43,385 nt of DNA from a virus, in the IMG/VR virus record IMGVR_UViG_3300045988_116410, positions 1 through 43,385 of that record; one strand, written 5' to 3'. The notes under the pieces are model-generated. The model was not told the DNA's origin. It ran no database searches and worked only from the letters and a program-made list of their open reading frames with translations. Of this stretch, positions 1-43,385 are shown in pieces (positions within the stretch are counted from its first letter, which is position 1; each line of letters starts with the position of its first letter). Made by a program: the position numbers and the translations under genes.

Positions 1-55
1 TAGTATTGATTCTAATTCTGTCGTTGCTTTAAGTCTTAAGACGTAATTAGTATTG
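1..55. repeat. Terminal redundancy: 1-55 is base-for-base identical to 43331-43385
   Basis: Direct comparison of the first and last 55 nt. Implies a circular or concatemeric template, or an assembler overlap. Confidence 0.9.
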
Positions 56-140
56 TTGTGTTGTCGTTGCCTCGGCGTCGAGTATATTAGCGGCTTGGTG
101 GATCTGGGTCGGACCTCGGTCGGGGCTTGGTCGTTGTTGG

Positions 141-488
141 TTGGTGGTTGTTGTGGCTTGGGCGCGTGATTCAGTTCGGCGGCGTCGGTTGCCGTCTGAT
201 TGGGCGTCTAGGCGGCGTGCGGTGTTGGCTCGTGATGGTGGTCGTTGTCAGTGGAAGGTTGATGCGTTGTCGGTGTGTGGTGCTCCGGCTACGGATGTGG
301 ATCATATTGTTCCTGGTGATGATGATTCGTTTGGTAATTTGCGGGCGTTGTGTCGTGAGCATCATGCGTTGAAGTCGGCGCGTGAGGGGCATGTGGCGTT
401 GGCGCGTATGCGTCGTGAGGTTGCTGGTCGGTTTAGGCGTTCTGATCCGCATCCTGGTTTGCGTGGGGGTGGTGTGAATGGCTCGTAG
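141..488 (+). CDS. HNH endonuclease
   Basis: 115-aa ORF with an HNH region CGAPATDVDHIVPGDDDSFGNLRALCREHHALKS. It lies directly upstream of the small terminase, as in HK97-like cos phages. Confidence 0.85.
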   Translation: MVVVVAWARDSVRRRRLPSDWASRRRAVLARDGGRCQWKVDALSVCGAPATDVDHIVPGDDDSFGNLRALCREHHALKSAREGHVALARMRREVAGRFRRSDPHPGLRGGGVNGS

Positions 489-1017
489 TGGTCCTGTTCC
501 TGCGCGGCGGGATGAGTTGGTGGATCAGCGTCCGTCGAGGACGCAGCATGTGACTGGTGGCGTGTTGATGGGTGCGTCGCCTCGTAAGGCGGATCGTAAG
601 TGGCATGCGACTGCTAAGCGCATGTATGAGGCTATTGAGGTGTCTGGTCAGTCGTTTTGGTTTCAGCAGACGGACTGGGAGATGGCGTATAGCTTGTGCG
701 AGGACTTGTCGGCGTATAAGCGTCAGCAGGATGAGGCTGTGCGTGCTCGTGCGTTGCGTGCTGGTTGGGATGCTGAGGCTGCGTCGTTGAAGCCGTCTGA
801 GCGTGAGGCGCGTGGGTTTACGCGTGATCGTCCTCCCCTGTTGCGTGATCCGTCGTCGCAGCGTTTGGCGACGATTTACATGGAGTTGGGTAAGTTGGGG
901 ATGTCGGAGTCGGAGCGTCGTAGGGCCGGTATTGAGTTGCGGCCTGATGAGTCTGAGGTAGTTCCGGCGTCGGTGAGTGTGATTGATAGTTACCGTGAGC
1001 GTTTGCGGTCGTCGTAG
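478..1017 (+). CDS. terminase small subunit (P27-like)
   Basis: 179 aa, overlaps the HNH stop. N-terminus SGPVPARRDELV resembles P27-family small terminases. Position between the HNH gene and the large terminase. Confidence 0.65.
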   Translation: MARSGPVPARRDELVDQRPSRTQHVTGGVLMGASPRKADRKWHATAKRMYEAIEVSGQSFWFQQTDWEMAYSLCEDLSAYKRQQDEAVRARALRAGWDAEAASLKPSEREARGFTRDRPPLLRDPSSQRLATIYMELGKLGMSESERRRAGIELRPDESEVVPASVSVIDSYRERLRSS

Positions 1018-1041
1018 TGGTTGTTGTTGTGGGGGTTGTTA

Positions 1042-1287
1042 GTGGTTGTTGTTTATAGTAAGCCTGGTTGTGGTGCTTGTGTGGCGACTAAGCGTGCTTT
1101 GGATAAGGCGGGCGTCTCGTATGAGACGGTGGATGTGAGTGTTGATCCTGCGGCTCGTGAGATGTTGGTTGAGCGCGGGTTTAGTGCGATGCCGGTTGTG
1201 GCTCCTACGGGTGATGTGGGGTCGTGGTTTGGTGGCTTTAGGCTGCAGCGTTTGCGTGAGGTTATTGCTGCTGAGGCGGCCGCTTAG
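1042..1287 (+). CDS. NrdH-like glutaredoxin/thioredoxin-fold protein
   Basis: VVVYSKPGCGACVATKRAL carries a CxxC motif, and the ~80 aa length is typical of NrdH. The ORF opens at 1021; GTG 1042 was chosen because GGGGG lies 7 nt upstream. Confidence 0.75.
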   Translation: MVVVYSKPGCGACVATKRALDKAGVSYETVDVSVDPAAREMLVERGFSAMPVVAPTGDVGSWFGGFRLQRLREVIAAEAAA

Positions 1288-1632
1288 AGGTTGTTCCCGG
1301 TAGCTGATTCAGCCCTCCCCTACAATGGGGTGGGGGTTGGGCTGGAGTTCTGTTATTCCCTCGTTGCCTCATGTGGGGTGGCGGGGCTGTTTTCAGCCCG
1401 CCCACGCGTTTGTGTGGAGTGGGCTGGAGATTCTTTTGTTCCTTTCCGCCCTGTGGGGTTGGTTGGGTTTTTGGTGGCCCCCGTACGCTGAGACGGCGAG
1501 TCGTGGCCCTGGGTCCGCGACGTGGCGCGCGAGCACGACGGCTATACGGCGGGGGCATTTTCTTGGTAGTGGTAGCGGGGTTCGCCTCGCGGCCGACCCC
1601 CTGACGGTTTTCGTTGGGGGGGTTCATCTTTG

Positions 1633-1717
1633 GCCCGTGTGGTGGAATTTGGTAGACACACCACACTCAAAATGTGGTGCTCTTTGGGGCGTGCGGGTTC
1701 GAGTCCCGCCACGGGTA
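1633..1717 (+). tRNA. tRNA-Leu(CAA), type II with long variable arm, no encoded CCA
   Basis: Hand fold: acceptor GCCCGTG/CACGGGT; D region TGGTGGAATTTGGTAGACAC; anticodon stem CCACA/TGTGG with loop CTCAAAA; long variable arm; T-arm GCGGG-TTCGAGT-CCCGC; discriminator A. The architecture parallels bacterial tRNA-Leu. Confidence 0.9.
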
Positions 1718-1750: not shown

Positions 1751-3451
1751 TTGGTCGATGTTGATAAGGCTGGGACACCCCCTGATGGTCCCTATGATGG
1801 TTTGTCTGATGAGGAGATTCTTGAGCGTTTCGCGCCGGTGCATTATGGGCCGACGTGGGAGCGCGGCGAGGATGGCCGGTTTGTGTTGCCTGAGCATACG
1901 TTGGGTTGGGAGATTGCTCGGTGGTGTTCGGATTATTTGGAGCCACTTGGTGCTGACCAGGAGGTGTTTGAGTTTACCTTGGAGCAGTTGCGTATCGTCC
2001 TGTGGTGGTATGCGGTTGATGATGAGGGTAAGTTCATTTACCGACGTCGCGGGGTGCTGCAGCGGATTAAGGGTTGGGGTAAGGACCCTTTGCTCGCGGT
2101 GTTGTGTTTGGTTGAGGCGTTTGGTCCGTCCCGGTTTGCTGGTTGGGGTTCTGATGGTGAGCCGGTTGGGCGTAGGTGTCCGCAGGCGTTGGTGCAGATT
2201 TTTGCGTTGAAGCAGGAACAAACGAGCAATACGTTCGATATGTTCCATGTGCTTGTTGGTGACAAGATGCGTGCGAAGTATGGCGCGGATGTGAAGCTGC
2301 AGATTGTGCGCGGTTGTAACAACACGGCGCGCATCGAGGTCAAGACGTCGGCGTTCCGTTCGACGGAGGGTAACCGTTGTACTTTCGCGTTGTTGAATGA
2401 GACGCAGCACTGGTTGCCGCAGAACAATGGACAGAAGTTGAAGAACACGGTTGAGGGTAATACGACGAAGATGAAGTCCCGTTACCTGGCTATTACGAAC
2501 GCGTATAAGCCTGGTGAGGGCAGCGTGGCTGAGGACGACCGTGAGGCGTATATGAAGTCGTTGGAGGGGTTGACGACGGAGACTGACGTGTTCTATGACT
2601 CGTTGGAGGCCCCGGATGATACGCCGTTGGATGAGCGCGTGTTTAAGGTGTTGTATAACGCGGTGCGTGGTGATTCGGTGTGGTGTGATGCTGATGAGGC
2701 GTGGCGGTCGGTGTTGAATCCGTCGCGTCCGACGTCGGAGTCTCGTCGCATGTATTTGAATCAGGTGTGGCAACCAGAGGGGAACCTGTTCTCATCGGCT
2801 GAGTGGAAGCGTATCGAACGTAAGGCGACGTTGGAGCCTGGTGACAGGATTGTGCTCGGGTTTGATGGCGGTAAGTCGGATGACTCTACGGCGCTTATCG
2901 CTATCCGCGTGTCGGATGGTTTGATGGTGCCGCTGCTGCTTGAGGAGAAGCCGTTGGACCTCGCGGGCGACTGGGAGGTTGACCGTGAGCGCGTGGACTC
3001 TATGGTCCACAGGTGCTTCCGTGACTACGACGTCGTTGGGTTCTACGCGGACGTCGCGTTGTGGGAGTCGTACATTCATGAGTGGACTTTGGATTATGGC
3101 GAGCGGCTTGTGGCTCGCGCGTCGGATAGGGGTCCGATTGCGTGGGATATGCGTGGTTCTCGTAAGCGGACGGCGGGCCTGCATGAGGCGTTTATGGCGG
3201 CGATTCTGGACGGTCGGGTGTCGCATGGTGGTTCGCGTGAGTTGGCGGCGTCGTTCCGTCGTCATGTGTTGAATGTGTTGCGTAAGGATACGCCGTATGG
3301 TGTGTCGTTTATGAAGGCTGGCCGTGAGTCGAAGAAGAAGATTGACATGTATGCGGCGGCGATGTTGGCGTTTGGTGCTTATCGGGATTATCAGACTGAG
3401 ATGGCGTCGAGGCCGGTTGCGAAGGCTGGGGGGTCGTTCTTCCGGTTCTGA
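1751..3451 (+). CDS. terminase large subunit
   Basis: 566 aa. Walker-A-like IKGWGKDPLLAV and the nuclease-domain signature GFDGGKSDDSTALIAIR. Followed by the portal gene. TTG start. Confidence 0.85.
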   Translation: MVDVDKAGTPPDGPYDGLSDEEILERFAPVHYGPTWERGEDGRFVLPEHTLGWEIARWCSDYLEPLGADQEVFEFTLEQLRIVLWWYAVDDEGKFIYRRRGVLQRIKGWGKDPLLAVLCLVEAFGPSRFAGWGSDGEPVGRRCPQALVQIFALKQEQTSNTFDMFHVLVGDKMRAKYGADVKLQIVRGCNNTARIEVKTSAFRSTEGNRCTFALLNETQHWLPQNNGQKLKNTVEGNTTKMKSRYLAITNAYKPGEGSVAEDDREAYMKSLEGLTTETDVFYDSLEAPDDTPLDERVFKVLYNAVRGDSVWCDADEAWRSVLNPSRPTSESRRMYLNQVWQPEGNLFSSAEWKRIERKATLEPGDRIVLGFDGGKSDDSTALIAIRVSDGLMVPLLLEEKPLDLAGDWEVDRERVDSMVHRCFRDYDVVGFYADVALWESYIHEWTLDYGERLVARASDRGPIAWDMRGSRKRTAGLHEAFMAAILDGRVSHGGSRELAASFRRHVLNVLRKDTPYGVSFMKAGRESKKKIDMYAAAMLAFGAYRDYQTEMASRPVAKAGGSFFRF

Positions 3452-30538: not shown

Positions 30539-31708
30539 TTACTGCCCGTTTTCCTGTTTGCCGTGATTGAACAGGTCAACAGGGCCGTCCGGCATTGCAC
30601 CGTCTAACTTCACGTAGTAGGCGATGGTGGTTTGCACGTTCGAGTGTGCGAGCCATGTTGCCGCCGCCCTTGCCCCGTAAGTGTCAAATACGATGCTGCC
30701 TACGGATTTGCGGATGCCGTGGATTGACAGGTCTGGCAGGTTGAGCTTGTTGAGGAGCAGTCGGCACTCTCGGTACATGGTTGCTTGCGCACGGTCGAAC
30801 AGGCGAGTATCCGGGGTTAGGTGCCGGGCTTTCTTGACCCTGGCGCACAGCCTGTCGGCCTGCCATTCGGGCAGGGCCTTGTCCGGGTACATACGGCGGG
30901 TCTTGCGGGACTCAACGCCGCGCACAGTCCCCGTATCGAGGTCGATGTTGCCCCAGGTGAGAGAGAACAGCTCCCCCGCGCGCAGGCCGAGGTGGGTTTG
31001 GAGGATCAGGGCGTCCACTGCGTCCTGTTCTGGGATGCGTTTTGCGTCGTACTGTTCGAGCGTTGTTATGAGGGCGCGCATTTCGGTGGGCGTGAGGATG
31101 CGGTCGCTGTCTAGTCTTACACGTACGGGGCTTGTGATGGGTGATTCTGTGGGCCGTGTGGACTGGAATGAGGAGAGGTTGACGGCGTCGGATGCGAGCT
31201 TGAGGGCGACGCCTAGCGCGGCTCGCAGGCTTGTTCTAGCGCGCCCGCTCCCGTGCTTGGCGACGTATCCGTCGTAGAGTGTGGTGAGTGCTGACACAGT
31301 GATGGCCTCGTCGAGGGGGAGGTGCCACCAGTGTGGGTTTTCTCGTTGACTGTCGGCTATGGCAGTCTCATAGTTGTGCCTGGTGCCCTCCGCGAGGGCT
31401 TGGTGTCGGCGTGAGCGCACGTACGCGTCCCAGACTTCCGTGGGGGTACTTTGTGGGGTGATGACGCCTGACGCGCGTTTAGCGTCGTCAATGTATTGTT
31501 TGGCTTGTTCCTCGCATTGTCGGATGGCTTGGCGTTTGCTGGTTGCGATGGTGCGGATGCGTTTGGGGGTGTCGCCTCGTTGTCCAATGAGGACGCTTGC
31601 CCTCCAGTGGGTGCCGTCCTGGTTGACGACCCACGCGCGGCCTTGTTTGGACACCTTGACAGTGGTGATGTTGCCTAGTTCGCCTGGTTGGAGTGCGCGT
31701 CGCGCCAT
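30539..31708 (-). CDS. int: tyrosine integrase
   Basis: Box I GLRAGELFSLTW, box II HGIRKSVGS, and WLAHSNVQTTIAYYVK (His...Tyr). ATG 31708 follows AGGAAGGG. The track ORF extends to 31948. Confidence 0.9.
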   Translation of the reverse strand: MARRALQPGELGNITTVKVSKQGRAWVVNQDGTHWRASVLIGQRGDTPKRIRTIATSKRQAIRQCEEQAKQYIDDAKRASGVITPQSTPTEVWDAYVRSRRHQALAEGTRHNYETAIADSQRENPHWWHLPLDEAITVSALTTLYDGYVAKHGSGRARTSLRAALGVALKLASDAVNLSSFQSTRPTESPITSPVRVRLDSDRILTPTEMRALITTLEQYDAKRIPEQDAVDALILQTHLGLRAGELFSLTWGNIDLDTGTVRGVESRKTRRMYPDKALPEWQADRLCARVKKARHLTPDTRLFDRAQATMYRECRLLLNKLNLPDLSIHGIRKSVGSIVFDTYGARAAATWLAHSNVQTTIAYYVKLDGAMPDGPVDLFNHGKQENGQ

Positions 31709-31748
31709 GATTGTGGACCCTTCCTGCGTGGGGGTGAGTGTTGGCCGC

Positions 31749-31757
31749 ATTGTAGCA
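31749..31757 (-). promoter_or_regulatory. extended -10 (TGCTACAAT) candidate promoter for int
   Basis: The minus strand reads TGcTACAAT about 40 nt upstream of the int ATG, just downstream of a hairpin plus U-run. Confidence 0.4.
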
Positions 31758-31780
31758 CGTGTTGCCTGTTTTTCGGGTAT

Positions 31781-31873
31781 AAAAAATGCGGCCCCCTCGT
31801 AAGGGAGAACCGTTACTCTCGCCACCCCCGTGTGGGGCGGGTTGAGTGCCGGTCTCCCTTGTGAGAGGGCCGC
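31781..31873 (-). terminator. large hairpin plus U-run separating the upstream operon from int
   Basis: Minus strand: GCGGCCCTCTC ... GAGGGGGCCGC followed by ATTTTTTAT, with internal sub-hairpins. Confidence 0.4.
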
Positions 31874-31884
31874 ATAGGGGCGGG

Positions 31885-32232
31885 CTAGAAACAGCCCGCA
31901 TACTTGAAAGTGACGTGGTTCGCCGCGTCTTGGATGAGGGTGCCCCACAGCAAGCCATGGGTGTATCCCCGGTCGATGTCGCTCACCCAGTCCCCCGCGC
32001 AGTCGTCTGCGAGTCGGTAGTAGCGGGATCCGTCTGACGCTTCAATGACTGTGCCTTCCGGGCAGTCAAGGTCGTCCGCGCACTGCAGCTCCCACCAGCA
32101 GTCGAGGCGGGTGATGGACTCAAGGCGCAGGACAGGCTTGGGCTTGAGCATGTCCTGTAGGGTTTCCAGCCGGGCCTTGATTTCGTTGCACGTGGCGATA
32201 GCCTCAGCGATAGCTGTGTTGGTTTCTGTCAT
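31885..32232 (-). CDS. paralog family member A (helical N-term plus GTVI..Y.R..W domain)
   Basis: 115 aa. CPEGTVIEASDGSRYYRLADDCAGDWVSD...VTFKYAG. Confidence 0.65.
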   Translation of the reverse strand: MTETNTAIAEAIATCNEIKARLETLQDMLKPKPVLRLESITRLDCWWELQCADDLDCPEGTVIEASDGSRYYRLADDCAGDWVSDIDRGYTHGLLWGTLIQDAANHVTFKYAGCF

Positions 32233-36150: not shown

Positions 36151-36558
36151 CTATGCTGTGGCGCGTCGGTTTGCGGCCATCCAGTCCGTGAGCGCATCGT
36201 GCGGGTAACGGACCACGCTCCCAACCTTCACAAACTCCGGCCCATCCCCAGTGAAACGCCACTCCCCTAGCGTGCGAGCGGACACGCCAAGCATGGACGC
36301 GACGTCGGCGGGCGTGTGCATGAGCCGGGGTTTTTCCGCGGCTTCCGCCCACGTGAGGAACATGTTGGCGGCCTCTGCGAGCTGGTCGCCCTGCGAGGCT
36401 TTGACGTTGACGATGCTCCCGTTTGGGGCGGGGGCTCTCCCGCCGATGTTGACTTGTGCGCCTGTGCGGCGGGCCTCGTCGATCACTGCGGCGAGGATCA
36501 GATTCGCGGCGGCGGGGTCGGTCGTGTGTGCGGTGACTGTGTAGGACTCCTGTGTCAT
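36151..36558 (-). CDS. excisionase-family HTH DNA-binding protein (Xis or early regulator)
   Basis: C-terminal TPADVASMLGVSARTLGEWRFTGDGPEFVKVGSVVRYPHDALTDWM. ATG 36558 chosen. A possible leaderless start lies at 36618. Confidence 0.65.
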   Translation of the reverse strand: MTQESYTVTAHTTDPAAANLILAAVIDEARRTGAQVNIGGRAPAPNGSIVNVKASQGDQLAEAANMFLTWAEAAEKPRLMHTPADVASMLGVSARTLGEWRFTGDGPEFVKVGSVVRYPHDALTDWMAANRRATA

Positions 36559-36615
36559 GTTGGTACTGCCTTCGTTGACGTTCGTGTGGCGTTGCCGGTA
36601 AGGGTTGTCCGACAA

Positions 36616-36654
36616 CATGAAAAATTTTAGTGGCAAAACGTGCTTTCTGCCACT
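36616..36654 (-). promoter_or_regulatory. candidate leaderless promoter (-10 TAAAAT at 36629-36624) overlapped by inverted repeat AGTGGCA-N12-TGCCACT (36629-36654)
   Basis: Minus strand: TAAAAT, 5 nt, then the in-frame ATG (36618). Perfect 7-bp arms lie just upstream. Confidence 0.4.
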
Positions 36655-36664
36655 TGACCAGGCG

Positions 36665-36976
36665 TTAAACCGCGCAGTCTCGCGGCTCCAAACGCGCCCA
36701 ACCACGGTGAACCCCCTCGGGTGTCACAGCCTCAACCGCGTCTGTCGGTTCAGACAGAATCCCCACCGGGAACCGCTTGGTAATTTTGTGACAATCGTCC
36801 GTCCGCCACCTGGTTCCCTCCACGAGGACCACGCGCCCCTGCTGCATCTCTGCCAGGAAATATGCGGGCCTATCAGGCATAATGCCCCGGCCCACCCACA
36901 GGCCAGCAGCCAAGGCCACTAGCGCCATAAGCCATGCGACCGTGCGCACGCTCAATTGTCCGTTGGAACCCGTCAT
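36665..36976 (-). CDS. membrane-anchored hypothetical protein
   Basis: ATG 36976 after GGAAGGAAGGGG. TM segment VAWLMALVALAAGLWV. The track ORF extends to 37165. Confidence 0.55.
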   Translation of the reverse strand: MTGSNGQLSVRTVAWLMALVALAAGLWVGRGIMPDRPAYFLAEMQQGRVVLVEGTRWRTDDCHKITKRFPVGILSEPTDAVEAVTPEGVHRGWARLEPRDCAV

Positions 36977-37944: not shown

Positions 37945-38187
37945 CTAGTCCCCATCCGCCATTGCTAGACGCCAGCGTTCGTCGTCTGCTGCAATGTCGG
38001 CGTAGATGGAAACGGAACTGAGGCTGCTAATGGCCTCGCCTAGCTTGGCGAGGAGGAGCGACTCGGCCTCAGTCGCCATCTTGCCTACCGTCATTTGCTC
38101 CCGTAGCTTTTTCTGCGCGATAGAGAGACTGGCGTGCATGATGCGGGACGTGTCAGCTACGAACGTAAGCCAGTTCGTGTGTTCCAT
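37945..38187 (-). CDS. hypothetical protein
   Basis: ATG 38187 lies 8 nt after GAGGAG. The ORF opens at GTG 38196. Confidence 0.55.
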   Translation of the reverse strand: MEHTNWLTFVADTSRIMHASLSIAQKKLREQMTVGKMATEAESLLLAKLGEAISSLSSVSIYADIAADDERWRLAMADGD

Positions 38188-38192
38188 GCTGG

Positions 38193-38453
38193 TCACTCCT
38201 CGCCCCCGTCAGGGTTAAGCTTGGTTGCCAGGTTTTCAAGCGAGGCTTCAAGATGTCGCATCGCCCCGAGCGCAGCACGCGCATGCACGCGGACCATGCT
38301 CGCCTCGGGCGAGTCTCCCAGCCAGTCGCCGTCCGCGTCGTGACTGTCCCGCACACCCGCCCTAAGCAGGTGAGCGTTAAGACAGTCCGCCCAATAGGCG
38401 ACAAACGCGTTGGTTTTCCGCAGCTCACGCGTCAGCGTATCGTCATCCATCAT
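38193..38453 (-). CDS. hypothetical protein
   Basis: 86 aa, acidic. Confidence 0.55.
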   Translation of the reverse strand: MMDDDTLTRELRKTNAFVAYWADCLNAHLLRAGVRDSHDADGDWLGDSPEASMVRVHARAALGAMRHLEASLENLATKLNPDGGEE

Positions 38454-38483
38454 TGGTCCTATCTGTCCTTGTCGATCGTTCTG

Positions 38484-38723
38484 TTACGCGGCGAGGCCCC
38501 ACAGGCCGCCGTCGCACACCGCCAACGCCAACACGCGGCGGGCGGCAGTCTTGAAGCCCTCACGCGTAACCGGCACGCCCTGCAGAGGCATCCACCGTCC
38601 GGGCTTGTCCGGGTCAGGGCCGCTCATCCAGTCCCCAGCGTCGGCCCACACGCCGTCACGCATGGGGATGCAGGGCTGGTAGGGGGCGGGTGGAACCCAC
38701 CCGCGCGTCATGCTCGCATTCAT
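38484..38723 (-). CDS. hypothetical protein
   Basis: 79 aa, Trp/Pro-rich. Lies 51 nt downstream of TLE-1. Confidence 0.55.
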   Translation of the reverse strand: MNASMTRGWVPPAPYQPCIPMRDGVWADAGDWMSGPDPDKPGRWMPLQGVPVTREGFKTAARRVLALAVCDGGLWGLAA

Positions 38724-38774
38724 TTTTGTCTCACTCTCGTTTCATGTCAGGACAAACCACTTTGATTGTCCTCG

Positions 38775-38825
38775 CTCCCAGGGCGGGACTCGAACCCGCC
38801 ATTACCTCACCACTCAAGCCTGGGA
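38775..38825 (-). ncRNA. tRNA-like element TLE-1 (acceptor stem, D-like hairpin, T-arm; no anticodon arm)
   Basis: Minus strand: UCCCAGG CUU-GAGUGGU-GAG GUAAUG GCGGG-UUCGAGU-CCCGC CCUGGGA G. 7/7 acceptor pairs. The T-arm is identical to that of the phage tRNA-Leu. Confidence 0.7.
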
Positions 38826-38835
38826 AACCGGGAGG

Positions 38836-39186
38836 TCACTCCCAATCGTCAGGAGAATCCACGACCGCGCGCAGCTCGCCAGACTCAACACGCTCCGCAA
38901 GAGACGCCGTAACCGCGCGGGCCGTCAGCAGCGGGGAGAGGGCAAGCATTAGTTCCCCCGCCCCCAGCTTGTCGTCACCCTTACCGCCCTGCAGCCATTC
39001 CTCCGCAAGGGTTTCAACCGAATACGCCGTACCCTCGCGGTCAACAAAGTGCGCCCACTCAGGCGCGTTCACCGCGTCACGCAGCACGTACTCACATTCA
39101 TCCCACGACGCTTTCAGCGCCGTCACCTGTTCGGGCGTCATGTACTCGCCCGCCGCCATCGTCTTGCACCTGCTGGTATCCCTCAT
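38836..39186 (-). CDS. acidic hypothetical protein (paralog of 40540..40875)
   Basis: APEWAHFVDREGTAYS motif. Start chosen downstream of TLE-2 (ATG 39186 after AAGGTGG; ATG 39159 is an alternative). The track ORF runs through TLE-2. Confidence 0.55.
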   Translation of the reverse strand: MRDTSRCKTMAAGEYMTPEQVTALKASWDECEYVLRDAVNAPEWAHFVDREGTAYSVETLAEEWLQGGKGDDKLGAGELMLALSPLLTARAVTASLAERVESGELRAVVDSPDDWE

Positions 39187-39247
39187 AGGGCACCACCTTT
39201 CACACTCAGTTTCAATACGGCCCGCAACCACCATGGCTGCAGGCCCG

Positions 39248-39300
39248 TTCCCTGGCCCGGACTCGAACCGGCACAACGCTCACCATTCAAGCGCCAAGGA
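39248..39300 (-). ncRNA. tRNA-like element TLE-2
   Basis: UCCUUGG CGCUU-GAAUGGU-GAGCG UUGU GCCGG-UUCGAGU-CCGGG CCAGGGA A. The acceptor has 7 pairs (one G-U). The T-stem has 4 bp plus a G.G mismatch. Confidence 0.6.
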
Positions 39301-39307
39301 CACCCCG

Positions 39308-39985
39308 TCATCCGACAATAACCACTGCCCCGCCCGTCACAGGCGTGTCACCCTTGAAGTCATGCACAACCACGGTCGGCACGCCCTCAACACTCGGCCT
39401 GTCCGCATCTTCCATCACGTACACGGTCGCACGCTCGTGCGCGTACACCTCGCCACCCTCGCAGTAGACAACCGACTGGCCGTAGGCCGTCACGTCAACA
39501 TCAGCGCCCATTTCGACAAACGAGCGTTGATAGGCCGTCACGGATGCGTGGCCCCATGCAACCACGTGGGACGTGGCCCGCGCCGTCACCTCCGCACTGT
39601 CATACGCGAACAGGGGGCAGAGCGAATGCGCTTCCACGGTCGCCATATCCCACGCCTGGCCGCGCGCATAGTACCCACACTTGCCGGTAGAACTGTCACG
39701 CCAGTTAACCTGGGCAAAGTCTGTCGCATGCACAACCGCGTCATCCTGCGCTTCAACCATGCTATGACCGCGCGCCGTCAACTGTGCCGTGCCCGATACA
39801 ACCACGCGCGATTCGCCCCGCGCTTCAATCGAGTGCCCGCGCGAGTCCGTCACGAAAATGTAGATCGGAACGTATTTGCCTGGGTCTGAGTGAATCTCAA
39901 TCACCATGTCATCAGACGGGGCCGCTTCCAGCGCCGCGTCCAATTCTTCCTGATTCGTCACGCGAACCACCTTGTCGCCGCTCAT
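39308..39985 (-). CDS. repeat-containing (beta-solenoid-like) hypothetical protein
   Basis: 225 aa with recurring A.G.S.V.A / V.A.G.A.V units, e.g. IEARGESRVVVSGTAQLTARGHSMVEAQDDAVVHA. Confidence 0.6.
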   Translation of the reverse strand: MSGDKVVRVTNQEELDAALEAAPSDDMVIEIHSDPGKYVPIYIFVTDSRGHSIEARGESRVVVSGTAQLTARGHSMVEAQDDAVVHATDFAQVNWRDSSTGKCGYYARGQAWDMATVEAHSLCPLFAYDSAEVTARATSHVVAWGHASVTAYQRSFVEMGADVDVTAYGQSVVYCEGGEVYAHERATVYVMEDADRPSVEGVPTVVVHDFKGDTPVTGGAVVIVG

Positions 39986-40038
39986 TTCCTCAGTCTCCTA
40001 TTCCATGTATCCGAGGCGACCGCCTTGGTCGCCCGTCG

Positions 40039-40094
40039 CTCCCTGTGCCCGGATCGAACAGGCCCTATCTCACCCCCACCATTGGGGACAGGGA
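40039..40094 (-). ncRNA. tRNA-like element TLE-3
   Basis: UCCCUGU CCCC-AAUGGU-GGGG GUGAGAUAGG GCCUG-UUCGAUC-CGGGC ACAGGGA G. 7/7 acceptor pairs. The T-stem has one G-U pair. Confidence 0.65.
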
Positions 40095-40140
40095 TAGCCA
40101 GCGTGTCACGCGCAAAGTCAGTCGGCATTCATCTCCGCTT

Positions 40141-40416
40141 CTAGCTCCTCAGCCTCTCTAAAAGCCTCCTCCCACACGGCCACCGCATCGGCCACCGCCT
40201 TAGCGACCGCCTCATCCGGCGTACGCTCAGCCGGGCCACGCACGCCCGCATCACAAACGCAACCAGCGTCCGATACGAATAGACGCGATACTCATCCCCA
40301 CCCTCAGGGCGCGGGATGCGAACCACATTGAAGTTGGTCGCCACGGGGATAATGTCACCCGCGAAACCATGCCGAACAGCGTACGCCGCCGAATCAATGT
40401 CATGAAGAACAGTCAT
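40141..40416 (-). CDS. hypothetical protein, 3' part probably out of frame
   Basis: The N-terminal ~55 aa look protein-like. The tail is Arg-rich (RLSVRRMRRSLRRWPMRWPCGRR). The -1 frame gives an acidic helical tail ending at 40118. Confidence 0.45.
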   Translation of the reverse strand: MTVLHDIDSAAYAVRHGFAGDIIPVATNFNVVRIPRPEGGDEYRVYSYRTLVAFVMRACVARLSVRRMRRSLRRWPMRWPCGRRLLERLRS

Positions 40417-40469
40417 GACGAAACCTCTTTCTCACATTCTCAAGTAAGGCAACAACCATTGTGGCCCCG

Positions 40470-40530
40470 CCCCTTGCCCAGGATTCGAACCCAGGACCCC
40501 CGCACGGGGGCGCAACCGACTTGCCAAGGG
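40470..40530 (-). ncRNA. tRNA-like element TLE-4 (has an extra 5-bp/tetraloop hairpin in place of an anticodon arm)
   Basis: CCCUUGG CAA-GUCGG-UUGC G CCCCC-GUGC-GGGGG UC CUGGG-UUCGAAU-CCUGG GCAAGGG G. 6 of 7 acceptor pairs. The T-stem has two G-U pairs. Confidence 0.55.
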
Positions 40531-40539
40531 TGAGAACCA

Positions 40540-40875
40540 CTAACGGCCCTCAATAGGACGCAAATCGCCATCCTGAATGCGCTCGTCGATCCAATCCAGC
40601 ATTCCGCAGCGGAAACCAATCGAATCCATCTCGCGAACTATCGCGCCCGCGTCAAACTCGAATCCGGCAACAAGCACCGTCCCGCACACGTCGGTAAGCA
40701 TGCTTTCGTAGGCGTCATTCATCTCACCTTCGGTAAACAGCTCACCCGCCGCGTCCACGTATTCCGCCCAATCGGGCACGCCGCCAAGCTCCGAACGCGC
40801 GAAAGACTCTCGGTCATCCCACGCATCCTGCATCGCTTCCAGCGCATCGCCCGTGACCTCAGTCATGAAACCCAT
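40540..40875 (-). CDS. very acidic hypothetical protein (paralog of 38836..39186)
   Basis: VPDWAEYVDAAGELFT motif. RBS AGAAAGAGG. Confidence 0.6.
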   Translation of the reverse strand: MGFMTEVTGDALEAMQDAWDDRESFARSELGGVPDWAEYVDAAGELFTEGEMNDAYESMLTDVCGTVLVAGFEFDAGAIVREMDSIGFRCGMLDWIDERIQDGDLRPIEGR

Positions 40876-40935
40876 CGTCTTGCCTCTTTCTCAATTGATC
40901 TGTGATAGGACACGCACACGCCATGCGCGCCCCCG

Positions 40936-40986
40936 CTCCTCGGGCGGGACCCGAACCCGCCTAAAACTCACCAATCAAGCCGAGGA
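40936..40986 (-). ncRNA. tRNA-like element TLE-5
   Basis: UCCUCGG CUU-GAUUGGU-GAG UUUUAG GCGGG-UUCGGGU-CCCGC CCGAGGA G. 7/7 acceptor pairs. Confidence 0.7.
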
Positions 40987-40995
40987 ACCACGCCG

Positions 40996-41250
40996 CTAAG
41001 ACGCGGCGTAAAAATCCCAATCGCGCCGATAATCCGTAGACCGCGCATCCGTATACGCATCCCACGCGCCAACGTCCCCACGCATCCCACGCAAAGACGC
41101 CCGCGTAGCGCGCCTAACGCGCTTACCCACAAGCCGACGCGTACCCGTATTCCAACGCGCAAAGTCCTTATCAATCGCCACGCCCTCCGCACACCTGCGG
41201 ATACGCGCCGCCTTGACTCGCCACGGGGCCGTCTTGTCCGTATGTGCCAC
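40996..41250 (-). CDS. basic hypothetical protein
   Basis: GTG 41250 lies 8 nt after GGAGG. The ORF opens at TTG 41265. Confidence 0.5.
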   Translation of the reverse strand: MAHTDKTAPWRVKAARIRRCAEGVAIDKDFARWNTGTRRLVGKRVRRATRASLRGMRGDVGAWDAYTDARSTDYRRDWDFYAAS

Positions 41251-41294
41251 CTCGCACACCTCCAATCATGCGCAACGCCAATCGTCACGCCCTG

Positions 41295-41344
41295 CGCGCG
41301 GGACGGGAATTGAACCCGCCATTACCTCACCACTAAGCCCGCGC
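41295..41344 (-). ncRNA. tRNA-like element TLE-6
   Basis: GCGCGGG CUU-AGUGGU-GAG GUAAUG GCGGG-UUCAAUU-CCCGU CCCGCGC G. 7/7 acceptor pairs. Shares 23 identical nt with TLE-1 but has a completely different acceptor stem. Confidence 0.7.
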
Positions 41345-41373
41345 CGCCCCTTAGTCAGGGGCCAAAGACTCGC

Positions 41374-41895
41374 CTAAGCCGCCGAAACCGAGGTCGGGGG
41401 AACCAGGATGGAAACCCACTCATCCGACGCCACCGCGTCCAAACCGCGCTCATCAAGAGCAAGCGCCCCCTTGGGAAACTCACCATGAGGGAAGTCAAGA
41501 CCCCACATAACCTGCCACCCAAGAGCACGCGCCGCCCGCTCAATCGCATCATGGAAAGCGTTGAAAACCATCTCCCCAATCGCATCAAGCCGGGCGTTAC
41601 CCTGCGCAGAACGCCGATACTCAGGGGCCGGATCATCAACCCACCAATTAGACGGGTCAAACTCGGGACGCCCACACTCATCCCACGCACGAAACACGCC
41701 GCGCCACGTGTGCGTATCCCAATACATCTGAAGAACGCACTCATCCCAATCAGCCGTGCCGGGCATCGTCGCATCGTCATAGAACCAAGCGACCAACTCG
41801 GGAAGCGTCCCATAAGTAAGGAAGCCCCTAACAGCCACATCCGCACAACGCGCCGCCGCCGCCAAACCCTCAACCAAAGTAGCCAATGTAAACAC
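41374..41895 (-). CDS. hypothetical protein
   Basis: Trp/Asp-rich, protein-like, about 170 aa. Start is GTG 41895 or, by analogy with gene 40416, TTG 41886 (8 nt after GAGAGG). Confidence 0.6.
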   Translation of the reverse strand: MFTLATLVEGLAAAARCADVAVRGFLTYGTLPELVAWFYDDATMPGTADWDECVLQMYWDTHTWRGVFRAWDECGRPEFDPSNWWVDDPAPEYRRSAQGNARLDAIGEMVFNAFHDAIERAARALGWQVMWGLDFPHGEFPKGALALDERGLDAVASDEWVSILVPPTSVSAA

Positions 41896-41964
41896 CTCTC
41901 ACATTCTCAACAGGCCCCCACCCTGAGGACCAGAATCAGCGCCGCCCACCATTAGGCGCGCCCG

Positions 41965-42040
41965 TAGACGGTGCGAGAATCGAACCCGCCGCCCGCGCCA
42001 CGTCTGCTAAACGCCCGCGCGAACGCTCACCAAAGCCGCC
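41965..42040 (-). ncRNA. degenerate tRNA-like element TLE-7
   Basis: Good T-arm GCGGG-UUCGAUU-CUCGC (41973-41989). Only 5 acceptor pairs (AGACG/CGUCU). The CUU-UGGU-GAG module is displaced about 20 nt to the 5' side. Contains a 9-nt direct repeat GCGCGGGCG. Confidence 0.3.
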
Positions 42041-42325
42041 CTAGTCCACTAACGACGCGCACCACAATTAACCGACCGGGAAACTCAAGGACGGTCCTAA
42101 CAACAGCAGTAAAGCGATAGGCCACGGCCCGCGCCCCTACAGACGGGGGCCGCCGCTCAAAACCTCGGAACCACTGCGATAGGCGAGAACGCGCCAAGGC
42201 GAAAAAACCACTCTGTAATTCACAACCAAGCCCCTCTCAAAGAGGGAAGATCAAACACACACCCAATCCAACGAAACGCCAAGGCCGGGGGCCTCTTTGC
42301 TCGCTCTCTCGGGGGCGATGAAATA

Positions 42326-42354
42326 AATGTACACCGCCCGCCGCCTGACTGCAA
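42326..42354 (-). promoter_or_regulatory. candidate promoter for the leftward operon (TTGCAG, 17 nt spacer, TACATT)
   Basis: Minus-strand hexamers at 42354-42349 and 42331-42326. Pattern match only. Confidence 0.25.
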
Positions 42355-42719
42355 ACTAAACGCCGCATCGTGAGACGTCAAACGGTCACACTCTGAGATA
42401 GGCGCAGAAACACACCGCAAACAGTTCGCCAGCATTACACGCCGGCCGCCAACTGTCAAACCGCAATTAGGGGCCATCGCGGGGGCCATTAGTTAAATGA
42501 GACGCTAATCACACTACCCGTGAATTAGTCCTACCCAAACACGCACGAGCGCGCGCGTAACACATGGCGACGTTATTGTCAATTCAATTAGCGGAATAGT
42601 GGCACAATAGACAAATAGAATTGCGCATACCCTATGTGTGCGAATTGCGCAAGCACATTAACCGAATAGCAACATAACAATTCAATAGCAAATTGACTTC
42701 AATTACAAAAACAATTCTT

Positions 42720-42777
42720 TGCGATAAATAAAGCAATTAAACGAGCAATTAAATAGCCAATCAACCAAGCGATTAAA
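42720..42777. repeat. iteron-like repeats AGC(A/G)AT(T)AAA at 12/12/24-bp spacing
   Basis: GCGATAAATA 42721, AGCAATTAAA 42732, AGCAATTAAA 42744, AGCGATTAAA 42768, inside the AT-rich zone 42540-42850. Confidence 0.6.
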
Positions 42778-43189
42778 TACAAGCCAAGCGCAGCGACTAG
42801 ACAGCGCGGGAATTGAACAAAGAATTGCAGACGAATAGGGGGCTATAACCCCGCAAGAATTGCCCCTAGATACCACACGGTCATAGCAAAAAATATCCGC
42901 GACGGGTTACAAGCTTTCCATGTCAACCAATTCGCCACGCCGCGCGCCGCTTGACTGCTAATCGTAACACGCCCGTCCCCGGACTCGCAACCCCGGTCGC
43001 AGCCCATGCCCCCGGCTCTTGGTGAGGGGGTTTCTGGCGAATGGCTTGTTTCTGCGGATTTGGACGCGATGCCATGATCGCCCACGCGTGACATGTGTCT
43101 CATTATTGAAAAATGTGCGCGGTGACCAGGGTTCCGAAAACAGACTATATAGTGAGAGGGTAAAAGCCCTTGGGGGGTAGGGGGGCAAG

Positions 43190-43208
43190 TATATATATAA
43201 ATATATAT
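43190..43208. repeat. pure A/T alternating tract TATATATATAAATATATAT
   Basis: Read directly. Immediately followed by CTTAAGTCTTAAG. Confidence 0.8.
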
Positions 43209-43298
43209 CTTAAGTCTTAAGCTAATGTTTAAAGCTCTCTATCTCAAGTCCTCTAGTTCACGACTTATGGTTTATAGCTCATGGTTTCTATCTTATAG

Positions 43299-43385
43299 TT
43301 CTGTCGTTGCTTTAAGTCTTAAGACGTAATTAGTATTGATTCTAATTCTGTCGTTGCTTTAAGTCTTAAGACGTAATTAGTATTG
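43299..43385. repeat. tandem repeat, period 47 bp: two 40-nt units (43299-43338, 43346-43385), each containing the palindrome GTCTTAAGAC
   Basis: Unit TTCTGTCGTTGCTTTAAGTCTTAAGACGTAATTAGTATTG occurs twice. A partial third copy (TGTCGTTGC) lies at 62-70 across the junction. The related CTTAAGTCTTAAG lies at 43209-43221. Confidence 0.85.

Follow-up and report, generated by a model that had tools for sequence, protein, structure and literature searches.

Anticodon-less tRNA-like elements between the small genes of an actinobacteriophage operon as candidate signals for mRNA punctuation

The viral record IMGVR_UViG_3300045988_116410 of IMG/VR (43,385 nt; the window, analyzed over its full length) contains seven tRNA-like elements (TLEs), located one per gap of more than 100 nt between the small open reading frames (ORFs) from 38.7 to 42.1 kb. 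The TLEs have the same orientation as the coding (minus) strand of this leftward operon, and their helices covary among related phages. We placed them among the known tRNA-like processing elements, as an RNA family that is itself new and occurs in a new setting. By analogy with the t-elements of plant mitochondria, the TLEs may serve to punctuate a polycistronic mRNA as processing signals of the RNase P/RNase Z type, a reading to which we give a probability of about one in two.

Structure and position of the elements in the window

Each TLE consists of a 7-bp acceptor stem, a D-like hairpin that follows directly and contains UGGU (with its GG) in the loop, a 5-7-nt linker, a T arm, the 3' strand of the acceptor stem, and a discriminator. 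The T arm has a 5-bp stem, a UUCRANY loop, and an invariant closing G-C pair (G53-C61, 59/59 distinct copies). The discriminator is G or A, followed by C and then by G, U, or A, and U1:A72 together with G73 is the dominant combination at the acceptor end. The base following the discriminator was C in 71/73 copies of this long class and in 35/38 copies of a short class described below; since C was rare at +75 (1/73 and 3/38 copies, respectively), CCA is not encoded. In TLE1, 2, 3, 5, and 6, which have no anticodon arm, the acceptor stem and the T stem are only 18-24 nt apart; a short extra hairpin takes the place of that arm in TLE4, and a long arm does so in TLE7.

TLE1 (38775..38825, minus strand, as are all the copies below) has the acceptor UCCCAGG/CCUGGGA, the D-like hairpin CUU-GAGUGGU-GAG, the T arm GCGGG-UUCGAGU-CCCGC, and the discriminator G followed by CG; it scored 70.6 bits (E = 2e-18) with the covariance model (CM) R2, and its 5' end lies 10 nt past the stop codon of ORF 38836-39192. 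TLE2 (39248..39300; 54.0 bits with R2), 7 nt past the stop codon of ORF 39308-39985, combines the acceptor UCCUUGG/CCAGGGA (one G.U) with a 4-bp D-like stem (CGCU/AGCG), the T arm GCCGG-UUCGAGU-CCGGG, and the discriminator A. The acceptor of TLE3 (40039..40094; 52.4 bits) is UCCCUGU/ACAGGGA, its D-like hairpin CCCC-AAUGGU-GGGG, its T arm GCCUG-UUCGAUC-CGGGC, and its discriminator G. TLE5 (40936..40986; 66.5 bits) is located 9 nt past the stop codon of ORF 40996-41265 and has the acceptor UCCUCGG/CCGAGGA, the D-like hairpin CUU-GAUUGGU-GAG, the T arm GCGGG-UUCGGGU-CCCGC, and the discriminator G. TLE6 (41295..41344; 60.6 bits, and orthologue alignment) has the acceptor GCGCGGG/CCCGCGC and the T arm GCGGG-UUCAAUU-CCCGU, the first pair of which is G.U.

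The other two copies are four-way variants. TLE4 (40470..40530) is a divergent one, with the acceptor CCCUUG(G)/(G)CAAGGG, the D-like hairpin GCA-AGUCGGU-UGC, the extra hairpin GCCCCC-GUGC-GGGGGU, and the T arm CUGGG-UUCGAAU-CCUGG, as given by its minimum free energy (MFE) fold; R2 matched it over its full length at 14.9 bits with a 21-nt insertion. In its orthologues at L039:2818 and L041:5356, the extra hairpin is present but differs in sequence. The 77-nt TLE7 (41965..42041) has the acceptor GGGCGGC/ACCGUCU (6/7 pairs, two of them G.U), the D-like hairpin UUUGGUGAG, a long internal arm with the loop UUAGCAG, the T arm GCGGG-UUCGAUU-CUCGC, and the discriminator A followed by CG. Its T arm was detected by the CMs R1 and R2, and the full element by alignment with L035:1247-1321 and by folding (orthologue z = -3.15). 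In both TLE7 and L035:1247-1321, the internal arm is approximately 15 bp long, and the 7-nt loop UUAGCAG is the same in the two, whereas their stems have different sequences; the arm resembles an over-long anticodon arm, and ARAGORN made no call at TLE7. At 40243-40316, within a gene, the CM gave a further match of 14 bits that was rejected as spurious.

The initial annotation of this region had proposed six copies with individually matched acceptor stems. All six were recovered on the minus strand, and a seventh, longer copy, TLE7, was present at 42041-41965. The acceptor halves of the six were as originally written, and those of TLE1 and TLE6 both pair at 7/7 positions. That each acceptor is matched by its own 3' partner held fully (7/7) in five copies and for 41/42 pairs overall, TLE4 pairing at 6/7 positions; the T stems were paired at 29/30 positions. 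The shuffled-sequence control that had been suggested favored the pairing, because shuffles of the 3' strands gave a mean of 21.6/42 pairs and none of 5000 reached 41. Exchanging the 3' halves between the six copies in all 265 derangements produced 29.4 pairs on average and never more than 33 of 42, and two to four canonical pair types occurred at 5/7 acceptor positions.

TLE1 and TLE6 share a 23-nt block, GAACCCGCCATTACCTCACCACT, which occurs exactly twice on the plus strand (38792-38814 and 41312-41334) and nowhere else. The block had been described as covering the T stem and the D-like hairpin; it does span the D-like loop and the linker, but of the T arm it takes in just the 5' strand of the stem and the three initial nucleotides of the loop. 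The claim that the two acceptors are completely different was overstated, since 3/7 pairs differ (positions 1, 3, and 5, both sides being changed each time) and positions 2, 4, 6, and 7 are identical. Orthologue alignment revealed two old acceptor lineages, the GCGCGGG type in six related phages and the UCCCAGG type in four. TLE6 of the window has the GCGCGGG-type acceptor and the corresponding 3' side of the T loop, while its center, GGUGAGGUAAUGGCGGG, is of the TLE1 type. TLE6 is thus a chimera by sequence comparison, a GCGCGGG-type element with a TLE1-type central patch, and the shared block is most likely a recent gene-conversion patch into TLE6, rather than the trace of an acceptor-stem replacement as had been supposed. 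The first T-stem pair of TLE6 is G:U, where the other GCGCGGG-type copies have C:G and the TLE1-type copies have G:C; it looks like a partly repaired conversion junction.

The 5' ends of the TLEs lie 7-10 nt past the upstream stop codon in 5/6 window copies, and the next start codon follows approximately 45-60 nt downstream of the TLE. A hairpin of 7-12 bp starts 2-4 nt past the discriminator in 59/66 distinct family members (RNAfold of the 40 nt downstream); with a hairpin beside nearly every TLE, the repeat unit is a composite of the two. In the window, RNAfold placed these hairpins on the minus strand at 38749..38772 after TLE1 (GGACAA...UUGUCC, starting 3 nt past the discriminator), 39219..39245 after TLE2 (12-bp stem, dG -23 kcal/mol, z = -4.3), 40012..40035 after TLE3 (GGCGACC-AAGGC-GGUCGCC, z = -3.1), 40907..40933 after TLE5 (11-bp stem), and 41270..41290 after TLE6 (GCGUGACG-AUUGG-CGUUGCGC); the hairpin after TLE7 folds at 41938..41962, also on the minus strand. 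The stems are unrelated in sequence between copies, and no U tract follows them. Across an orthologous set of eight, pairing in the hairpin of TLE5 was complete (100%), three of its pairs showed compensatory changes, and G.U pairs were frequent. A scan for intrinsic terminators did not call the TLE-associated hairpins and found fewer terminator-like sites than in shuffled sequences (3 versus 6.7). The hairpin loops often contain AUGGYG or AAGGCGG.

On the 5' side, a leader G-G-K-U is conserved at -5 to -2; position -4 is G in 69/77 copies, and position -1 is U, A, or G but never C. A similar GGU(G/A) leader is located ahead of the Mycobacterium-phage copies described below. The idea that the GGUG leader and an AUG in the D-like loop form a start site was dropped, since in phage Indlulamithi this AUG does not share the frame of the gene annotated downstream. 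Between the 3' hairpin and the start codon (for example, at 38748-38724, 40447-40417, and 40906-40876), the short motifs UGACAUGAAACGAGA, UAUUGAGAAUGUGAGA, and ACAGAGAACAAG recur in the window and its relatives; these may be leader or ribosome-binding-site (RBS) context elements that move with the downstream gene.

Covariation in relatives and a short class in other phages

A pattern that fixes the distance from the D loop to the T loop matched 48 viral contigs, in which a CM seeded from two equal-length copies (TLE1 and TLE5) gave 72 hits. Arrays of 6-9 copies were found in approximately 12 contigs, and the array-bearing viral contigs were 70-90% identical to the window; L014, L024, L009, and L031 gave weak single hits. 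One bacterial genome contig, from the metagenome-assembled genome (MAG) of an uncultured gut Actinomyces, carries six or more TLE copies, and the presence of these copies points to Actinomyces as the phage host. In the same MAG, ARAGORN reported a 'tRNA-???' with a 2-nt anticodon at L049 3003-3073 (minus strand), apparently an element of the TLE4 type; this is the only element-like locus reported by any standard tool.

MAFFT alignments were set aside, as they misplaced the 5' acceptor halves owing to the unequal lengths of the middle part. Alignments of 59 distinct copies were instead fitted by the model, and slide controls, RNAalifold, and the hand-aligned six-copy test above served as safeguards against the resulting bias. 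Over the acceptor and T helices, 98.0% of the cells were paired, compared with 72.8% when partners were shuffled and 32-59% when the strands were slid against each other. Double-sided changes occurred in 11/12 pairs, with 151 compensatory cells. RNAalifold, which had been recommended as a check, recovered the same helices de novo from the extended alignment. The D-like stem was 95.5% paired, and its middle pair alternates among U-A, C-G, and A-U. Within the modelled helices, G.U pairs outnumbered A.C oppositions by 70 to 7, and this excess indicates that the folding strand is the sense strand. The addition of relatives therefore strongly supports the original view that structure, and not merely a repeated sequence, is under selection.

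One of the hit loci, in the Mycobacterium phage Indlulamithi, revealed a short class of 39-45 nt (approximately 43 nt), in which acceptor stem and T arm form a continuous helix of approximately 12 bp with a bulge of approximately 11 nt on the 5' side (A-A-C-G-G-U-U-U-U). The stack is always approximately 12 bp long and is split into 6+6 or 5+7 bp; downstream, CG, a hairpin, and an RBS follow in this order. The short class covaries as well, with 95.9% of its pairs formed, compared with 64.5% after shuffling, and double changes in 10/12 pairs.

The cultured M. smegmatis phages Indlulamithi (L169, NC_048824.1, record 34886-44700) and Fowlmouth (L170, NC_048734.1) carry 10 or more short-class copies in regular gaps of approximately 90 nt. 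In Indlulamithi, these gaps separate gp40 to gp57 and have nothing annotated in them; nearly every one holds an element (at least 10), and the full-length elements lie 9-10 nt past the annotated stop codon. In Fowlmouth, the elements are mostly 8-9 nt past the stop codon of the GenBank annotation. Three annotated GenBank starts overlap predicted elements, namely gp53 of Indlulamithi (start 8773; element L169 8756-8798) and gp47 and gp56 of Fowlmouth (starts 4366 and 7975; elements L170 4372-4414 and 7969-8009), and these gene starts may have been called too far upstream.

Among the matches listed by a second pattern scan with model screening, the short class occurs in the Mycobacterium phages Cuke, Fowlmouth, and MrMiyagi, in many metagenomic viral contigs, and in prophage contigs of 34% G+C with two to four near-identical short copies each. 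The 34% G+C contigs L052, L065, L068, L075, L092, L116, L120, and L144 carry near-identical copies of TCCCAAACGGTTTTTTGGAGCGGTTCGATTCCGCTCCTGGGAA, with a 5-bp acceptor and a 7-bp T stem, past apparent TAA stop codons of putative frames and ahead of the next ATG. One of them, L092, is a Mu-like element from a host of the Flavobacterium type, encoding a DDE transposase, a MuB-like AAA protein, and a DUF3164 protein; its sole phage match is a Flavobacterium phage.

Known tRNA-like systems and genome context

In the window, ARAGORN and Rfam at the gathering score reported only a tRNA-Leu, and both classes of elements were likewise missed in the relatives. Rfam 15 contained no matching family for the TLEs at either gathering or permissive thresholds, and the gaps that hold the elements are unannotated in GenBank records. 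Our literature search found no description of such elements in phages. A 2023 catalogue of viral structured RNAs screened IMG/VR and reports 10,006 unnamed candidates (PMC10690425); overlap with these candidates is possible.

The TLEs have the 7-bp acceptor stem, the 5-bp T stem, the UUCRANY loop, and the G53-C61 pair of canonical tRNAs; however, they gave no match to RF00005 and have no anticodon arm with a 5-bp stem and a 7-nt loop. They resemble canonical phage tRNA genes in acceptor stem, T arm, discriminator, and the absence of an encoded CCA, and differ from them in having no anticodon arm. The tRNA-Leu(CAA) of this phage (1633-1718) likewise has no encoded CCA, and its 17-nt T arm GCGGGTTCGAGTCCCGC (1693-1709, plus strand) is that of TLE1 and TLE5; the tRNA-Leu scored only 28 bits on the TLE model, compared with 52-71 bits for the TLEs.

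Among the closest documented relatives in design are t-elements, which are defined by a non-canonical tRNA-like fold, the motif GGTTCRANYCC, and a position in an mRNA precursor beside a coding region, and at which RNase P/Z cleavage forms mRNA ends (PMC1920247). The TLEs show all three features, as do the plant mitochondrial t-elements (Forner et al. 2007, PMC1920247); those of wheat are attributed there to Hanic-Joyce 1990. In plants, end cuts by RNase P and RNase Z have been shown or proposed to make mRNA 3' and 5' ends, and released t-elements carry a non-encoded C or CCA (PMC1920247). In Haloferax, t-elements serve as processing signals (PMC7521656). The plant t-elements, however, are few, scattered, and idiosyncratic organellar structures with a mostly cloverleaf-like outline, whereas the TLEs form a uniform covarying family without an anticodon arm, found in bacteriophages at seven or more consecutive junctions with fixed stop spacing and a coupled 3' hairpin; their processing is only predicted.

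The mascRNA/menRNA family (Rfam RF01684), which comprises the 3'-end signals of MALAT1 and MEN-beta, is also tRNA-like at approximately 55-60 nt; besides the acceptor stem and the T arm, it has a small D-like hairpin and an anticodon-like stem that is shortened. Section 5.4 of PMC4919922 names RNase P and RNase Z as the enzymes that cut mascRNA. TLE4 aligned end-to-end with RF01684 at 18.5 bits (E = 4), which is far below the gathering score of 42.5, and the other copies gave no match. Unlike the TLEs, mascRNA is a single-copy element of a eukaryotic nuclear long non-coding RNA (lncRNA), and most phage copies have no anticodon-like stem. The punctuation of animal mitochondrial transcripts is similar in that tRNA-shaped units, proposed as RNase P/Z signals, stand between the cistrons of a polycistronic transcript; those units, however, are functional decoding tRNAs, and the TLEs cannot decode. 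The tRNA-like domain of transfer-messenger RNA (tmRNA), an RNase P substrate, likewise lacks an anticodon arm and combines its acceptor stem and T arm with a mimic of the D loop, but the TLEs are cis-embedded, repeated, and free of any mRNA-like domain or tag reading frame. Pair 3:70 of the TLEs is C:G or G:C, not the G3:U70 alanine identity pair of tmRNA. ARAGORN found no tmRNA in the window, and the only related signal was a partial beta-tmRNA match of 9.6 bits at the T arm of TLE7.

At 43.4 kb, the window is a genome of the temperate actinobacteriophage type. The large terminase (1751-3451, plus strand) is approximately 50% identical to the large terminases of Streptomyces phages, and protein family scans identified an integrase (30539-31948) and an excisionase-like helix-turn-helix protein (36151-36705). 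No close relative was found among GenBank phages, and megablast and blastn searches of these phages with the TLE array gave no matches. Both ends of the window (1-1400 and 41900-43385) are contiguous in the related contigs L013, L043, and L044, so that the window holds the whole genome, opened at an end that is either arbitrary or cohesive. The plus strand carries the genes as far as approximately 27 kb, and the minus strand carries those beyond. The two strands differ strongly in composition (1-24000 and 38000-42000), with a GC skew of approximately +0.3 on the plus strand over plus-strand genes that turns negative where the genes change to the minus strand; the coding strand thus has far more G than C.

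The TLE modules separate the small minus-strand ORFs 41374-41895, 40996-41265, 40540-40875, 40141-40416, 39308-39985, 38836-39192, and 38484-38723. These seven ORFs matched no Pfam family, and their PHROGs matches were only of unknown function; Pfam and PHROGs gave no informative function for the other right-arm genes either. A scan of the TLE array for promoters and terminators revealed neither a signal nor an enrichment. The leftward operon starts near the right end of the window, where the 178 nt upstream of TLE7 (42042-42219, minus strand) hold no convincing ORF and come after a terminator-like hairpin (42247-42231). This stretch could be the promoter location of the TLE-punctuated operon.

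A proposed role in mRNA punctuation

We propose that the TLEs are cis-encoded tRNA mimics that may have retained only the parts read by the end-processing machinery (the 12-bp coaxial stack of acceptor and T arm, the T-loop/GG elbow, the discriminator, and C74) and dropped the decoding arm. Acceptor/T-arm minihelices suffice as substrates for bacterial RNase P and the CCA-adding enzyme. The TLEs would be transcribed within the long leftward mRNA of the phage right arm, each folding just beyond the footprint of a ribosome halted at the upstream stop codon; the spacing of 7-10 nt roughly equals the downstream edge of the footprint of a terminating ribosome. The 5' cut would then come from RNase P of the host, and a cut past the discriminator from an RNase Z-type (or RNase E-type) enzyme. 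This work would fall to enzymes of the host, because no RNA-processing enzyme was recognized among the 20 right-arm proteins scanned against Pfam and PHROGs. These cuts would split the polycistronic transcript into single-gene units, and each downstream mRNA would begin 2-4 nt ahead of a stable hairpin, an arrangement typical of a 5' stabilizer. A tRNA-like RNA of approximately 50 nt would be freed and may gain CCA, and each small accessory gene would become a self-contained expression cassette independent of its context. Cleavage and CCA addition, that is, every enzymatic step, are what we infer, as opposed to the anatomy, position, strand, covariation, flanks, and distribution of the TLEs, which were observed directly. 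The placement on the sense strand, the single element per junction, the stop spacing, and the position of the hairpin together favor cis-acting processing signals.

Several observations weigh against this proposal. Nothing in the known preferences of RNase P explains why the GGKU leader is conserved. Avoidance of pairing between -1 and 73 is not clean, since only C(-1) is avoided, U(-1) stands opposite G73 in 35/73 copies, and 10/73 copies have a Watson-Crick pair there. CCA is an anti-determinant of RNase Z, so that C74 might lower RNase Z cleavage. The upstream mRNA would be left with an unprotected 3' end 7-10 nt past its stop codon, which offers no obvious advantage. The module is not uniform, as the low-G+C copies have no 3' hairpin. 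Finally, MFE z-scores of single sequences were modest (-1 to -2) in a G+C-rich context, and TLE2 and TLE3 fold differently when taken alone; these z-scores were not used as evidence.

The same conserved parts, exactly the acceptor end and the elbow, could also belong to trans-acting decoys, that is, processed, CCA-tailed, abundant tRNA-like RNAs that soak up host proteins binding the ends or elbows of tRNAs, such as tRNA-binding enzymes or anti-phage toxins that cleave or modify the 3' ends of tRNAs. The many copies per genome with varied acceptor stems would fit this function, as would their location among proteins of unknown function in an early or accessory region typical of counter-defense genes, and the dominance of U1:A72 with G73 hints at mimicry of particular tRNAs. 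We regard it as unlikely, however, because decoys need neither one TLE per junction nor a fixed spacing of 7-10 nt from the stop codon nor a 3' hairpin; moreover, phage tRNA genes normally cluster, the acceptor sequences drift freely without tracking specific targets, and the processing steps of punctuation would still be required. The tight placement past stop codons, approximately 45-60 nt ahead of the next start, and the adjoining stable hairpin would also suit structures that are never cut by RNase P, either tRNA-like caps protecting 3' ends from exonucleases after a downstream cut or insulators isolating the RBS from upstream translation, and the 3' tRNA-like structures of plant RNA viruses are a precedent. 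Such a role seems improbable to much the same degree, since a generic stabilizer needs no T loop, GG elbow, 12-bp stack, discriminator, or C74 conserved across phyla, and simple hairpins, which already exist at these sites, would suffice.

The alternation of ORFs with structured repeats also resembles a cassette array, and the elements might act as boundaries in DNA, as attC-like folded single strands, as T-arm-like sites for a tyrosine recombinase (integrases are known to target the T arms of tRNAs), or as hotspots of homologous recombination. The points where homology between relatives breaks off coincide with the modules or lie close to them, two types of element meet in the chimeric TLE6, and 165 of the 259 site pairs that share a flank between contigs share one flank only. 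In these comparisons, the TLE tended to travel with the upstream gene (identity 0.84 where only the upstream flank is shared versus 0.78 where only the downstream flank is shared), and the hairpin and leader with the downstream gene (0.78 where only downstream is shared versus 0.69 where only upstream is shared). Mosaicism at the modules is, however, also expected from homologous recombination at any conserved repeat, and recombination would be a by-product of any repeated sequence. The excess of G.U over A.C argues against a double-stranded site, though less against folded single-stranded DNA. A DNA site has no reason to conserve the nucleotides of tRNA tertiary contacts, and this architecture is shared by phages whose integrases differ or that have none, among them Mycobacterium phages of the lytic type and transposable phages resembling Mu; we therefore consider a DNA-level function quite improbable. 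Functionless pseudogenes decaying from a former phage tRNA array are the least probable of all. The TLEs are clearly derived from tRNA, as the T arm shared by TLE1, TLE5, and the tRNA-Leu shows, but decaying copies would not hold 98% pairing through 151 compensatory cells, nor would they all drop the same arm, keep a fixed position past stop codons, and turn up again in unrelated phages from two phyla. Covariation and position together effectively refute this reading.

Returning to mRNA punctuation, we tentatively suggest a more general form of the proposal, in which phages of at least two bacterial phyla would use anticodon-less tRNA mimics as punctuation marks, so that host RNase P and a 3' endonuclease cut accessory-gene operons into insulated, individually stabilized mRNAs and the unit hairpin-leader-gene-TLE becomes an exchangeable cassette. 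If so, these phages would borrow the tRNA-maturation machinery to organize mRNA expression, which has so far been documented for mitochondria and a few eukaryotic lncRNAs, and would provide a bacterial-virus parallel to mitochondrial tRNA punctuation as well as a natural counterpart to synthetic operon insulators based on tRNAs or ribozymes. A widespread RNA family with 7-14 copies per genome would have been missed by standard annotation, even in cultured and engineerable Mycobacterium smegmatis phages, and some GenBank gene starts would be corrected. The elements would account for the regular gaps of approximately 90-120 nt between the small early genes of these phages, give the mosaic swapping of accessory-gene cassettes a defined boundary, and offer compact natural parts (43-51 nt) for insulated operons in Actinobacteria.

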